Sequence record: LR597647 | Length of the DNA stretch: 64,000 nt | Source: Escherichia phage rV5_ev147 | Reading direction: 5' to 3' (one strand) | Shown: positions 39,121 through 53,368 of the stretch, piece by piece | Layout of the letters: the number at the start of each line of letters is the position of its first letter | How positions within the stretch are numbered: position 1 is the first letter of the stretch | Notes under the pieces: generated by a model | Seen by the model: the letters and a program-made list of their open reading frames with translations, nothing else | Database searches by the model: none | What the model was told of the DNA's origin: nothing | Position numbers and translations under genes: made by a program

Positions 39121-39336
39121 ATGAAGATAGAGATATTTGGTGGAGCTGACAACACTCGTGGCCTGATTTACCTTGAATTCGATGAATCATACCTGCCAGA
39201 GGTGTTAAATATAGACTCTGTTGCTGAGGCTTTGGGAGTAAACCCTAAAGAACTCCACTCTTGTGCTGAGATCGATGGTTGGGAAGAGACCATGAACATT
39301 GATTTCAGTGAAGTAGAGGATGAACCGCTGGACTGA
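39121..39336 (+). CDS. Hypothetical small acidic protein
   Basis: MKIEIFGG start, acidic tail; last + strand gene before the non-coding region. Confidence 0.4.
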   Translation: MKIEIFGGADNTRGLIYLEFDESYLPEVLNIDSVAEALGVNPKELHSCAEIDGWEETMNIDFSEVEDEPLD

Positions 39337-39463
39337 CACACAATTAGCTGCCCGGCTAAAGTGCTGGAAGCACCTATAACACATCTTTCAACTAAATTTC
39401 CTACCACCACAATCACTTACCTCCCACACATGACTGTTTGCTTGTTTAGTGAGCAGTCATGCC

Positions 39464-39491
39464 TTGACATTCTTGCCTATCCTGATAAAAT
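39464..39491 (+). promoter_or_regulatory. Sigma70-type promoter with extended -10 and overlapping 8-bp inverted repeat
   Basis: TTGACA (39464-39469), 16-bp spacer, TGaTAAAAT; CATGACTG...CAGTCATG palindrome just upstream; no ORF follows. Confidence 0.45.
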
Positions 39492-39497
39492 TAAGTT

Positions 39498-39775
39498 CTT
39501 CTCTTTTCTTTTACCGAGTAATTCGGGTTTTCTGTTCTCTTCGGTTTGAAGGGGTATAGAGATACACCTGAGTGAACAGGGTGAACAACCGAACCATTAG
39601 CTATGGCATTAGCATGGCGAAGCGGACGGGTGACGAAAGAGGGGCCGGAGGACACCAGTCACTGCCATATGATATATGGGTGATAACCTGAAGAGTCTGA
39701 ATAAGTGTTTAAGTACCAGTCAGAGGAAAAGGTGAATGGTAGCCGAAGGGGGGGAGGGGGGTTTCTTGTATCTTT
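39498..39775 (+). ncRNA. Candidate non-coding RNA ending in a G-rich tract
   Basis: About 280 nt downstream of a good promoter with no ORF; local hairpin CCGAGtaatTCGG; ends GGGGGGGAGGGGGGG + T-run. Confidence 0.25.
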
Positions 39776-40806
39776 AATTTGTATATTATGTATACACTTG
39801 TAAACCAATCTAATCTGAATCTGTTTACCACACAAAGCGGATAGAGACAAATATTGCCTATTAAACTTGAATTATTTATAGAAAATACCACAACACCCCT
39901 TAAGTCTTTGATTTTACACACAAATCCTACAGATATTCAACCTCCATATTTAACATACTTGTAACATATTCCATACTCTACCTGTCTGATCAATTTCCCC
40001 AACTACATTCTCATATTTTCCCTGTCTGTACTACCCCTGCCCCGCCGGGAGTCCCGTCATATCTGGCTTTCCAGCAAATATCACACCCACAAATATCATT
40101 GCCTGAAGAGGGTTTCATCCCATAATACCTGCCTTACCTGAAGAGCGCTTCATACACCACGTAAATTTTTTAATTGACCTCCCCCTGCCCCGCCGGAGAG
40201 GTTGGCTTTTCCCACACAGACCTGAAGAGTCAGCCAGAAATATCTGAATAGGCCCAATTCTACCACGATTTTGACCTGACCTACAGGGAGGCCCGAAGGG
40301 TCTAGCTTTCAGCTAGAGTCCTTGCAGGACCTACAGGAGCGCTGCCAGGCGGACGGAATGGGAATACTTCTCATTCTTATAACAATTCTCAAATATCGAG
40401 GCAGTGAGAGAAATTAATAGGCCAGGCCGTTCACACAGTGGCACAACATTTGCAACCTATTTTGTGTGGATGAATGAGAATACCTATCATTGTGAGAACT
40501 GTTATCATTACGGGCAATTTAACATAATACCCATTATGCGCACCACTGGCGATACATACAAGGATTGATAACATGAGTTACAGTTTACGCATATAACAAT
40601 CATATTTCTTACTATTTGTGTGGGATATAGTTAGCAGCCAATAGATTAGATATTGACCTGCGGACTTCCAACCGTCTAGACGTCTAAACGCCCACACAAC
40701 AAGGATTATACATACATTACTGAATGTAAACAGGACCGCAAAAATGCTACCATACCAGTTTGTAAATTTTTCATGCAGCACTTGACAAAGAGGAGGAAAA
40801 CTTGTC

Positions 40807-40852
40807 TGACATAATGGTGACATAACTGACACGATTGACATAATTGACATGC
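40807..40852. repeat. Five tandem TGACA(T/C)(A/G) boxes at about 10-bp phasing
   Basis: TGACATAA at 40807, 40818, 40836 and variants at 40827, 40845. Confidence 0.7.
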
Positions 40853-40936
40853 CTGACTGTTCACGCTCTCATTATTCCCGCCCTTACTATTCACGCCCTT
40901 TACTGCTTACATTCTTGATAGTCTACATGCTTAATG

Positions 40937-40992
40937 GTTTACATGACTAATAGTTTACATAGCTAACTGTTTACGCATAAACTGTTTACACA
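40937..40992. repeat. Four GTTTAC(A/G) iteron-like repeats at 15-16 bp spacing
   Basis: GTTTACATG 40937, GTTTACATA 40953, GTTTACGCA 40969, GTTTACACA 40984. Confidence 0.7.
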
Positions 40993-41002
40993 GATATGAT
41001 AA

Positions 41003-41302
41003 GCCATGCCATTCGTTTGCATGATAACAATAACGATCAACAACAATAAAGACTGAAATGATAACGTTGTTGATTTGACTGACTAACAATTAACAGGCTA
41101 ATAATCTATGACATAATATAAAAGCAGGGCAACTATTAGCAGATCTATAGTTGCCTTGCTTGTTATGTCATGATTAACTAAATACAAGGCAACTATGATC
41201 TGATTAATAGTTTGCAGACAAACTATCACGGGGGTGATGGTTACTGCTTTTATATTATGTCGCGACTCCGTCGCGCCATGCCATTCGTTTGCATAGTTGC
41301 CT
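41003..41302. repeat. Composite repeat locus: 20-bp direct repeat, 18-bp inverted repeat and GGCAACTAT palindromes
   Basis: GCCATGCCATTCGTTTGCAT at 41003 and 41275; GACATAATATAAAAGCAG (41110) with exact reverse complement at 41244; GGCAACTAT/ATAGTTGCC palindrome at 41128-41155. Confidence 0.75.
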
Positions 41303-41955
41303 TATTGTTACAGATAAAATAATTGTATTGTTAATTATTTCTTATCTTTCTATTAGTCATCTAATGATTCCAGTTAGTATAGTAACGTACAGTAAACATT
41401 AGACGACTAAAGATTTCTCTGATTATGATAACTTGCCGTGACAATTTCAGACTGTTTACGAAAAATGTTGACACCTGAGCTGATTTATGTTATGCAATTT
41501 AAACGAATAATTATTTTATGCAGGTATTGACTATTCTGTTATTCTATGGTCGGAATAAATACTTAGCAGGCTATAGAATGGTGAGCGTACGTAAATTCTG
41601 AGATCTGTCGGCTATAGTTATACTCGATTTTTCACGTAGAACACGCTTTTTGGTTTGTGTAAGTGTATGACTTATAAAGATTTTTAGTTGTTGACAAGAT
41701 ATTGAAGATGTGCATCAGGTTAAATTTTGTGCAATAGCTGCATTACGTGCAATTTTGGAAGGAAAACGGGTAAAAATAGCACCGCTACCACACAATGAAA
41801 GGTTATGCAATAGTTATTTTACATGTATATTTGTACAGTGTGTGGGATTGATGGCTCGTCAATTATTCCACTTGCCAGGTAGGGCCGTTTATGGTAGGGA
41901 GGAAGAGCAGACAAAAAGAAAGGGACCTAAGCCCCTTGATAATTCAGTTAAAAAA

Positions 41956-43117: not shown

Positions 43118-43329
43118 GGCGTTTTCCTCTCTTCCGGTTGTTGTGTGGGCGCTTTTGCCCCCTTCGAGATAAATGCTACCCCACCACCTGGCAGATGTCA
43201 ACGGTTTTTATAGTTTTTATATAGCAGGCACACCCGGTGATTGTCTCCCCCCGTCGCCAGGTGCCTGCCGTGAAACAAGTATAACAAAAAACAGGACCAT
43301 TGCAAGCCCTGTTTTGTAGTTTATAAGGA

Positions 43330-51764: not shown

Positions 51765-51851
51765 GATTTTTATCCTCTCTGTTAATTAGTGTGGTGTTGT
51801 TCACCTTGCGAGGATAAGAATAACAGAACTATCCGAGCTGTCAACCATTGG

Positions 51852-52022
51852 TTAGAATTTTTTTGGTAAGAATTCTCCAGCCGCCGCCCCTGCCAGGTTA
51901 ACCATCATTTTTTCGTACTCTTCTTTATGTTCCAACGCTCCCGCCATAGCCTTTTCAACCAGGGCGATAGCCTCAGCGTCATTAATAGCTACATTTTCCA
52001 GGGGGATCATATTACCTTTCAT
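51852..52022 (-). CDS. Hypothetical small protein (56 aa)
   Basis: ATG 52022 after GAGGAGG SD; below ORF-track cutoff. Confidence 0.35.
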   Translation of the reverse strand: MKGNMIPLENVAINDAEAIALVEKAMAGALEHKEEYEKMMVNLAGAAAGEFLPKKF

Positions 52023-52239
52023 TTTTGTACCTCCTCTTCAATTGTTACCTATCCTATAGCATAGGCCCACCAGGTTTGCAAGCCTTCATTCTCTCCTACC
52101 TGGTCAGTTAGGTCCTGCCAGGCTGGCCCCGCCAGGTTGCAGCGGTCAGCGCATCAGGTTAGAAAAATTTTTTTGAAAAGTGTTGACAGCGGCCCCGCCA
52201 GGTGGCACAATATACCTATCGAAAGGACGGCAGGCACCG

Positions 52240-52440
52240 GTGACGGGGAGACAACCACCGGGGATGGGCGCTGCATAAAATGAGAACGGTTATCATTATC
52301 GTCTAAAAATTTATGCAAAAACTTCTTGCTTTCTTTGTCCTGTGTGTTACTATAATAACAAGCCGGGGCAGTAGGGGCCGGGAGACAATCACCGGGGGTG
52401 CCCGTTATTCTGCAAACGAGAATGATTATCATTCAAAATT
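52240..52440. repeat. Two tandem diverged GC-rich units, each followed by an ATGAGAA/GAGAATGA box
   Basis: GGGGAGACAACCACCGGGG (about 52248) and GGGAGACAATCACCGGGGG (about 52383), each followed by ...TGAGAA...TTATCATT; ATGAGAActtttCTCATTTC hairpin at about 52445. Confidence 0.6.
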
Positions 52441-52566
52441 CTAAATGAGAACTTTTCTCATTTCATAAATTTAGTTAGCATGCTAATTACCTACCGTGAC
52501 AATTCTATATAAAATAATACCTCCTAAAATATTTCCATATACAAATTTTAAAAATCCATTTCCGAA

Positions 52567-52718
52567 AACGAAAAATCGCTTTCGTTCCCAAAAATTTTAG
52601 ACCTGGTGCTGGACCAATTTCAAGAAAATCCGATTCAGAAAACGAAAAACAGATCGAGTACTGAGAAGTTTATCGAGAAAAATTTTCAGAAAATTCAATC
52701 TTTGAAACGAAAAACAGA
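52567..52718. repeat. GAAAACGAAAAA direct repeats in a non-coding stretch
   Basis: GAAAACGAAAAACAGATCGAGTAC at about 52637 and 52695 (24 bp, exact); related GAAAACGAAAAATCGCTTTCGTT palindrome at about 52567. Confidence 0.6.
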
Positions 52719-53038
52719 TCGAGTACCTAGAAAGCTGCACCGCAATTTCAAGATGGTGGTTAGATTATTACCATAAAAGGTCAAGGGTGAGTGGGAAAGT
52801 TCTGGTAGAGGGGTGTGAGCATACGCGGAAAATCTAGAATGGTAGTCCGGAATATGGTGCAAACGATAGGATGAGTGGTTCAGCTCGTCGTGCCTACTCT
52901 GAAAAAATCCATTTTAGTTTTCGATCCATTTTCTGATTTTCTAACAATTTTAAAATATCTGGCCGGGTGAAATATCAAAAGGAGGAAATCCATTTTAGAA
53001 ATCCTCCTTATACTTGATATGTCAGAAATTTTCAAGTA

Positions 53039-53368
53039 TCAGCTATCTTTGTTTTTAGGTTTATACATGCGGAGAGGTATAGTCTTTGTAACATTCCATT
53101 TACTCAACCCTTCCCAGCTCCAGTTGTGGGCATGGTATCCGGTTATGCATGCACTGCTGGAGTGATCGTAAGCATAAGAGAACGCTAAGCGCACCAGGTG
53201 AGGCCAGTCTTTCCACGGTTGTGGTCCGTAAGCTTTTCTCCAACACCGACACAAACTAAATGTCTCAAGAATAGGCAGGATAACAAATCCATACACCGCC
53301 ACCAGAATAGCCAGCGCAATGATTGTCAGGAATACATACCCTGCAGTTGAAACGATGATCTCTGTCAT
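53039..53368 (-). CDS. Membrane protein
   Basis: N-terminal TM segments IIVSTAGYVFLTIIALAILVAVYGFVILPI. Confidence 0.45.
   Translation of the reverse strand: MTEIIVSTAGYVFLTIIALAILVAVYGFVILPILETFSLCRCWRKAYGPQPWKDWPHLVRLAFSYAYDHSSSACITGYHAHNWSWEGLSKWNVTKTIPLRMYKPKNKDS

Follow-up and report, generated by a model that had tools for sequence, protein, structure and literature searches.

A conserved non-coding region of Escherichia phage rV5_ev147 combining host-type promoters, a stem-loop motif coupled to promoters, operator sequences of the Fur family and origin-like repeats

The 64,000 nucleotides (nt) of Escherichia phage rV5_ev147 (genus Vequintavirus; sequence record LR597647) that we analysed, hereafter called the window, contain at positions 52040-53040 an island located within the long minus-strand early/middle arm, between two blocks of minus-strand genes. 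In the matching record LR694165.1 (rV5_ev156; window position + 64001) the island corresponds to about 116.0-117.0 kilobases (kb). Many small open reading frames (ORFs) lie to its left; further small ORFs lie to its right, followed 8-13 kb away in the same arm by a T7-like DNA polymerase and a helicase-primase. The genome map of rV5 shows the island as a box marked 'non-coding', about which nothing further is said (PMC3606486). This box is a conserved non-coding control region made of several parts: host-type promoters, a stem-loop motif coupled to promoters, operator sequences of the Fur family and origin-like repeats. Each component is of a known kind; their combination and the RNA/DNA motif are undescribed.

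Conservation in relatives, which an earlier note on this DNA had set beforehand as one test of its proposals, turned out to be extensive, the whole island being present in more than 100 records of rV5-like phages with 83-93% identity. In an alignment of 11 rV5-like phages, to which the statements on invariance below refer, positions 52111-52727 and 52896-53010 are near-invariant and positions 52728-52895 vary freely. The same note had found no convincing ORF in the island, and the comparison bears this out. The minus-strand ORF of 92 amino acids (52154-52432), translated in each of the 11 aligned phages, is not kept as a reading frame: it is cut to 45-49 codons in three relatives and missing in slur16 (broken in 4 of the 11), and its last 29 codons are in another frame in rV5_ev147 than in rV5, RudolfGeigy, navn and others, because one G is missing at 52245 and the A/T run near 52166 differs. 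The nucleotide sequence of the ORF is nearly invariant at all three codon positions, and the ORF is a by-product of the conserved non-coding sequence. Annotators accordingly disagree on this ORF, which is annotated with 91-95 amino acids in several records. Plus-strand ORFs of 43-48 amino acids were also considered and rejected, inspection by eye alone showing no ribosome-binding site and no equivalent of them in other genera.

The left half of the island contains two predicted promoters, each followed by one copy of a stem-loop motif that we call the B element, with a third copy elsewhere in the window:

52183-52211, plus strand: predicted promoter P1, TTGACA-17-(TG)CACAAT (promoter scan 10/12, extended -10)
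52218-52276, plus strand: unit 1, B-type stem-loop that begins about 7 nt behind promoter P1, with helices P1 and P2 (from folding) and loop core GGAGACAACCACCGG at 52247-52261
52326-52356, plus strand: predicted promoter P2, TTGCTT-19-TATAAT (read from the sequence)
52362-52411, plus strand: unit 2, B-type stem-loop with loop core GGAGACAATCACCGG at 52381-52395 (covariance-model match of 86 bits)
43191-43283, minus strand: third unit, B3 (covariance-model match, exact core motif and promoter scan)

The promoters P1 and P2 are arranged in tandem, correspond to the sigma-70 type and point rightward, opposed to every flanking gene. The earlier note had already seen promoter-like sequences in front of the units on the plus strand, which agrees with the detection of P1 by the scan and with the near-invariance of P2. 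P1 itself is nearly invariant, with a constant -35 hexamer, a mostly constant spacer and a -10 hexamer that reads CACAAT, AAAAAT or CATAAT. P2 was not listed by the scan because its 19-nt spacer is too long; both of its hexamers are unchanged in the 11 relatives, only two positions of the spacer vary, and it is homologous to the promoters that precede the B3 copy and the second copies ('B2') found in other phages. In more distant relatives, the scan detected promoters on the plus strand only, directly upstream of the elements (two in phiTE and three in a contig of the Klebsiella type, with none on the minus strand).

The two tandem units with a conserved core described by the earlier note are present where it had placed them, the core GGGAGACAA(C/T)CACCGGGG being found at 52245-52262 and 52379-52396. 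Their common 15-mer, GGAGACAAnCACCGG, occurs three times in 64 kb (52247 and 52381 on the plus strand, 43234-43248 on the minus strand), against 0.25 occurrences expected from shuffled sequences. The third copy, 9 kb away on the other strand, had been missed by the earlier note. In the sense of the early genes, B3 is organized as a terminator-like hairpin overlapping the promoter TTGCAA-16-TATACT, the stem-loop, a further promoter TTGACA-17-TAGCAT and a gene. On the minus strand of 43191-43305, the loop of the terminator-like hairpin holds the -35 hexamer of the B3 promoter, and a spurious plus-strand coding sequence is annotated over B3 in the record.

We built a covariance model of the B element in which two helices, P1 on the outside and P2 on the inside, were imposed manually, so that the alignment is biased towards this structure. 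The model recovers the element in every genus sampled and also recognizes unit 1 (59.8 bits, E 1e-11), whose closest copy is the one at 43.2 kb. It finds exactly three copies in this genome (about 122 kb of 136 kb examined) and, in phages of the Klebsiella type, B2 copies located several kb away on the other strand. The B2 copies have the same layout as B3, a hairpin and then a separate promoter for the downstream gene, which indicates that promoter and hairpin move together as a module and that the downstream gene is independent of the module promoter. Unit 2 is the copy conserved across genera, and the 76-90 nt or so around it are the sole part that BLAST recognizes there, with 77-89% identity in phages of Klebsiella (Mydovirus), Cronobacter and Salmonella (Seunavirus), Pectobacterium (Certrevirus) and Serratia, and about 71% identity in Phapecoctavirus, which belongs to another subfamily.

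In the alignment fitted to the structure, 78% of the B-stem cells are paired, versus 38-52% with slid partners, and six pairs are changed on both sides. G-U cells outnumber A-C cells (50 vs 21), which favours the promoter strand as the folded strand. The inner 4-bp stem (bp, base pairs) is formed by CCGG/CCGG in some lineages and by GGGG/CCCC shifted by a few nt in others, and in RudolfGeigy a GG-to-CC change makes the helix longer. Conservation is much higher in the apical loop GAGACAAnCACC, in which A..CAC is invariant, than in the stems, a difference that points to sequence-specific recognition. A structured RNA, as proposed by the earlier note, is therefore plausible in so far as the promoter-coupled units form a conserved plus-strand stem-loop; the covariation support for the fold is modest, and the element corresponds to no known RNA family. 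Rfam 15 gave no match at gathering score in the 64 kb and only chance-level matches (E >= 1) in 51800-53200 and four related loci, and ARAGORN detected no tRNA or tmRNA in the window or in five related loci. By eye only, the GGA in the loops recalls CsrA-binding sites, and a resemblance to a CRISPR repeat, as in mimicry of one, was also noticed.

Both island units are followed by the sequence (A)TGAGAA..TTATCATT (52281-52297 and 52417-52433; repeat family D3), which coincides with the best candidates for operators of the Fur family. Two palindromes lie just beyond:

52276-52300, no strand assigned: putative Fur-family operator 1, GAGAACGGTTATCATTATC (16/19 matches to the consensus at 52282, best match in 64 kb)
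52412-52436, no strand assigned: putative Fur-family operator 2, GAGAATGATTATCATTC (15/19 matches to the consensus at 52418)
52443-52463, no strand assigned: palindrome 3, AAATGAGAAcTTtTTCTCATTT (AAATGAGAA-N-TTCTCATTT), a putative operator resembling Fur hexamers (from the sequence)
52475-52486, no strand assigned: perfect 12-bp palindrome TTAGCATGCTAA, nearly invariant in rV5-like phages

The consensus used was the 19-bp inverted repeat GATAATGATAATCATTATC, for which about 0.4 sites with at least 15 matches are expected in shuffled sequences. Both operators contain overlapping matches offset by 6 bp (52276/52282 and 52412/52418), as in natural hexamer arrays. The form found in relatives, the 19-mer ATGAGAATGATTATCATTC, is closely related to operator 2 (the window has ACGAG at the 5' end instead) and was found in over 120 genomes from many bacterial phyla, versus about four matches expected by chance. 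According to Pfam, its bacterial neighbours encode TonB-dependent receptors, Fur-family regulators, ZnuA, binding proteins of the siderophore type (Peripla_BP_2) and of the ferric type, and SufE. At least 38 of 95 bacterial loci have such an iron or metal gene as neighbour, a lower bound obtained with reference proteins chosen by eye and not an unbiased estimate.

The tails of the units and the third hairpin noticed by the earlier note do exist, but a reading as RNA hairpins fits them less well, the related sequence preceding bacterial iron genes and the variation affecting single arms. In relatives, palindrome 3 presents changes in one arm only (TCTCATTT to TCGCATTT; AATAAGAA versus TTCTCATT), and its counterparts in other phages behave likewise. 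Such changes would break an RNA hairpin and suit the loose Fur hexamer rule, so that the unit tails and palindrome 3 are better read as DNA operators for the Fur family of the host.

The 17-mer GAGAATGATTATCATTC is also found exactly in 103 stretches of unrelated viral contigs (IMG/VR loci L006-L108, e.g., L012, L015, L061 and L093), often in arrays, overlapping TATAAT or located 3' of a terminator. Judging from these occurrences, Fur-regulated promoters or arrays of Fur sites seem common in phages. The pattern TTGTAAAGAnnnGTAAAG was discarded, as its matches in viral contigs are mostly due to chance, and a BLAST search of E. coli genomes with the box region as query was uninformative, the query being too short. 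In the library of papers searched, none dealt with Fur sites in genomes of lytic phages.

Beyond the operators, the island becomes AT-rich (GC of 0.18-0.30 across 52450-52600) and contains two families of repeats around a variable spacer:

52487-52557, no strand assigned: most AT-rich segment, candidate unwinding region (50-nt composition steps)
52552-52598, no strand assigned: degenerate first repeat unit of family D1, an AT-rich hairpin (terminator-like on the minus strand, scan 52595 to 52558)
52616-52667, plus strand: repeat unit 2, with the iteron core AAACGAAAAACAGATCGAGTAC at 52640-52661, invariant in the 11 relatives
52681-52732, plus strand: repeat unit 3, with an identical 22-bp core at 52705-52726 (repeat search)
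52728-52895, no strand assigned: hypervariable spacer between two conserved repeat-bearing blocks, with few invariant columns
52896-52975, no strand assigned: conserved right-hand block with AAATCCATTTTAG (52905), the inverted iteron-like GATCGAAAAC (52917-52926, minus strand) and two copies of AAATATC
52979-53009, minus strand: hairpin AAGGAGGA...TCCTCCTT with a T-rich tail, the loop of which contains the fourth copy of AAATCCATTTTAG

The direct repeat reported by the earlier note is real, with no such pair expected by chance, but the AAACGAAAAACAGATCGAGTAC pair is exact over 22 bp and not 24, the 24-mer having two mismatches in its second copy. The repeat search places a further, degenerate copy at 52542-52593. 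A second family on the same strand, resembling AAATCCATTTTAG, is present in four copies (52552, 52626, 52905 and 52986), and the two families, labelled by the motifs GATCGAGTAC and AAATCCATTTTAG, flank the hypervariable spacer. The hairpin at the right edge has mostly conserved arms, some relatives having one or two changes in them, and this hairpin, read from 53009 to 52979, is probably the terminator of the minus-strand operon arriving from the right.

The composite is conserved across all genera of Vequintavirinae sampled and in Phapecoctavirus; the earlier note had not recognized that its repeats belong to an origin-like array shared by several genera. The related loci of phages infecting Klebsiella, Cronobacter, Pectobacterium, Salmonella and Serratia present the parts in the same order. 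In genera other than Vequintavirus, a small plus-strand ORF comes first, followed by a plus-strand promoter with an 'element A', a second plus-strand promoter with the B element, one to four AT-rich palindromes, often a third plus-strand promoter, and then an array of three to six direct repeats, 63-78 nt apart, ending in GATCGAGAAC or GATCGAGACC. Element A is absent from the window, its place being taken by unit 1 in Vequintavirus. The Phapecoctavirus ukendt has the same promoters, RNA elements and boxes, followed by a different AT-rich repeat.

Several observations concern these related loci. Element A, CGCCACCCCACGGCGAAAAGGCGGGGCUAAC...GGAAGGUGGAUCGCCGGUAGYUCG, is highly conserved and coupled to its promoter (L003 2330-2420, L004 2364-2456, L005 2320-2412, L242 1879-1971 and others). 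RNAalifold predicts for it a hairpin and a long-range helix around a variable hairpin, with G-C/A-U covariation; it has no match in Rfam, and its CGGTAGC resembles the RfaH ops site, by eye only. The small plus-strand ORFs at the left edge (L005 2069-2260, L004 1888-2319, L242 1568-1835 and L244 1528-1794) fall into two unrelated types, only one of which has a GWQGGTVHQVA motif, and are absent from the island of the window. A perfect DnaA-box consensus, TTATACACA, covers the -10 hexamer and start site of the B promoter in phages of the Klebsiella type and in Certrevirus (L003 2465, L004 2511, L243 1976, L245 1965 and L247 1976) and is absent in rV5-like phages. The tRNAs Lys, Ile and Met annotated in OY978796.1 (L003 1878-2573) were not called by ARAGORN and cover a coding stretch and the B element; their coordinates are probably misplaced.

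The arrangement of the island recalls known origins of replication. The primary origin of T7 consists of the tandem promoters 1.1A and 1.1B followed by an AT-rich region, and T4 origins combine a promoter with an unwinding element, oriE also carrying iterons. Similarly, the tandem promoters of the island, oriented in the same direction within a gene-free stretch, point into an AT-rich segment, here and in relatives; several direct repeats, as in T4 oriE, are conserved in relatives; and the phage encodes a DNA polymerase and a helicase-primase of the T7 type. Unlike in T7 and T4, the promoters are of the host sigma-70 type, each with a conserved structured element and a putative Fur operator behind it, and the repeats lie at intervals of 63-78 bp; the sequences themselves are not similar. 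Given this layout of promoters, AT-rich DNA and repeats, the T7-type replisome and the fact that no other origin candidate has been reported, we tentatively propose, as the best of the explanations considered but with a probability below even, that the island acts as an iteron-type origin of replication activated by transcription, or as a region controlling replication, in which rightward transcription is gated by the Fur protein of the host.

According to this proposal, host RNA polymerase would start at P1 and P2 and proceed rightward, against all flanking genes. Each transcript would open with the GC-rich B stem-loop of about 50 nt, then pass over a host Fur-family operator and continue into the AT-rich stretch with its two repeat families around the variable spacer. 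These rightward transcripts could open the AT-rich repeat DNA or prime it for the T7-type polymerase and the helicase-primase, and a phage protein would bind the repeats. Iron-loaded Fur (Fe-Fur), sitting just 3' of the stem-loops, might tune the amount of transcription that passes, either as a roadblock some 60 nt into each transcript or by acting 60-100 bp upstream of the next promoter. A broader version, in which large lytic enterobacterial phages of two subfamilies share an undescribed module, is in our opinion quite improbable; here a new class of stem-loop RNA coupled to promoters would, together with operators for host Fur, control transcription into the iterons and so tie the start of replication to host iron.

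A number of results weigh against an origin of this kind. Skew analysis did not reveal the origin in the rV5 genome paper (PMC3606486), and in our data the GC skew follows gene orientation only. No DnaA-box or IHF consensus is present in the island of the window, GATC is not enriched there, and a GATC/SeqA cluster is unsupported. (Sites for DnaA and IHF are not required for origins of the T7/T4 type.) The repeats, 63-78 bp apart, are widely spaced by the standard of classical iterons, and rV5 has only two or three copies of them. The Fur boxes, located about 60 nt past the previous start and 60-100 bp before the next promoter, are not in the position of a classical repressor. B3 and the B2 copies of the Klebsiella type lie between ordinary early genes with no repeats nearby, so that the stem-loop module must have a function independent of an origin. 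Finally, RNAalifold returned no consensus structure from a plain MAFFT alignment of the B element, the stem-loops do not fold with clearly better energies than shuffled sequences (z from about +0.5 to -3.7), and the covariation score of the B element was reached by 125 of 500 column shuffles and is thus not significant. In the library searched, we found no paper on transcripts, the origin or Fur sites of these phages.

The independence of the B module from the repeats leads to a different explanation, in which unit 1, unit 2 and B3 are genes for stand-alone small RNAs of about 50-70 nt whose extended hairpin displays the loop GGAGACAAnCACC and which act in trans, as cis-antisense RNAs (for instance against minus-strand read-through) or by binding a protein, the Fur boxes and repeats being separate sites of an ordinary intergenic regulatory region. 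Each copy of this multi-copy family, with three members here and second copies in phages of the Klebsiella type, has its own promoter, and the gene downstream of the sense-oriented copies has a further one, so that the hairpin is not needed as a leader; the far better conservation of the loop, the maintenance of the stems by different sequences in different lineages and the G-U bias towards the promoter strand also fit an RNA of this type. The known hairpin RNAs of plasmids, RNA I/RNA II of ColE1 and CopA of R1, which are antisense or copy-control RNAs, offer a parallel: the B elements are likewise short promoter-proximal stem-loops with a conserved apical loop, beside a candidate origin and transcribed against their neighbours. 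Unlike the plasmid RNAs, they have no complementary target loop except on the opposite strand of the units themselves, and they show no similarity to these RNAs in sequence or in Rfam. No canonical intrinsic terminator follows the hairpins (none in the plus-strand scan) and the U-tracts are poor, no target was identified, the thermodynamic and covariation support is weak, and the presence of Fur operators and repeat arrays after the island copies in every genus is left unexplained. We regard small RNAs, the main rival explanation, as possible but doubtful and only a little less probable than a transcription-activated origin; the two are not mutually exclusive.

The position of the island between two minus-strand gene blocks raises the alternative of an operon boundary, at which hairpins and AT-rich -10 hexamers would terminate minus-strand transcription and P1 and P2 would interfere with it, or at which the units would be elements of processive antitermination. 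For termination speak the terminator-like minus-strand hairpins (53009-52979 and 52595-52558), the good folding of the reverse complement of unit 2 (z -3.3) and the terminator hairpin overlapping the promoter of the third copy at 43.3 kb, but the G-U pairs favour the plus strand, and 1 kb with four conserved sequence families far exceeds what a boundary needs, the conserved loop, Fur operators and repeats finding no explanation. The nut sites of lambda and put sites of HK022 are RNA antitermination elements, and the B elements resemble them as paralogous hairpins that occur several times per genome, a short distance behind early promoters. They differ from them in having one extended hairpin instead of two and no boxA/boxB consensus (by eye only); no N-like protein was identified, and the island copies face the 3' end of the operon, where antitermination has no obvious use. 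A boundary or antitermination function for the island is unlikely. It is very unlikely that the Fur operators are decoys which, increasing in number with phage replication, titrate host Fur and so relieve the repression of iron uptake, to the benefit of iron-dependent phage enzymes. The sequences are perfect Fur-family operators whose number varies from one to four per island between phages, and the 17-mer is common in unrelated viral contigs; their fixed place directly behind the stem-loops argues for local regulation, and an E. coli cell holds several thousand Fur molecules, against which two to four sites on each copy of the phage genome are a small number. We give hardly any credence to a protein-coding function (ORF 198 of rV5), refuted by the broken frame in spite of the existing annotations, or to an RNA antitoxin mimic. 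The latter idea comes from the related phage phiTE, which carries pseudo-ToxI, an intergenic non-coding tandem repeat with a period of 36 nt at 106.7 kb (PMC3475682). The island also consists of intergenic non-coding repeats in a phage of the same subfamily, but its homologue in phiTE is at 39.6 kb and pseudo-ToxI lies between genes 202 and 203, the repeat period is 65-74 nt, the sequences are unrelated and no toxin gene is present.

The putative Fur boxes of the island resemble known boxes in their 15-16 matches out of 19 positions, in their overlaps phased by 6 bp and in the bacterial iron and metal genes preceded by the 19-mer of relatives; they differ from usual boxes in belonging to a strictly lytic phage and in not overlapping recognizable -35 or -10 hexamers. 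If Fur really binds them, a virulent phage would sense host iron at a point central to its control, which would matter for how phages perform in infected tissue and in the gut, where iron is scarce, and the occurrence of the Fur-type 17-mer in about a hundred unrelated viral contigs suggests that iron sensing by phages may be common. The rV5-like, PVP-SE1-like and phAPEC8-like phages find wide use in phage therapy and in food-safety work. The blank 'non-coding' box now becomes a testable map with candidate transcription starts, a multi-copy motif without Rfam family, putative operators for a host metal regulator within the conserved core of a strictly lytic phage, and a repeat array that at present is the strongest candidate for the origin. 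A regulatory region, one of the possibilities raised by the earlier note, is clearly supported; nothing points to the recombination site also suggested there, the phage being lytic and without integrase.

Another conserved part of the island lies upstream of P1:

52111-52141, no strand assigned: GC-rich conserved block with the repeat family D2, GCCAGG(C/T)TG, and CCWGG sites, invariant in the 11 rV5-like phages

The densest cluster of CCWGG sites (Dcm/EcoRII-type) of the 64 kb is located at 51933-52205 (six in 200 nt), mostly inside the GC-rich promoter spacers and the block 52111-52141; in related phages too, CCTGG is found immediately 3' of the -35 hexamer in these promoters. A 48-nt segment at 52065-52112, with a possible leftward promoter TTGCAA-17-TATAGG, appears dispensable since it is deleted in three relatives (L230, Mangalyan and slur16). 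Outside of the island, the window contains two more gene-poor gaps of about 1 kb at 39335-41955 (103.3-105.9 kb of the record), where gene orientation turns from plus to minus; no tRNA was found there, and one stretch within them has a GC content of only 0.35.

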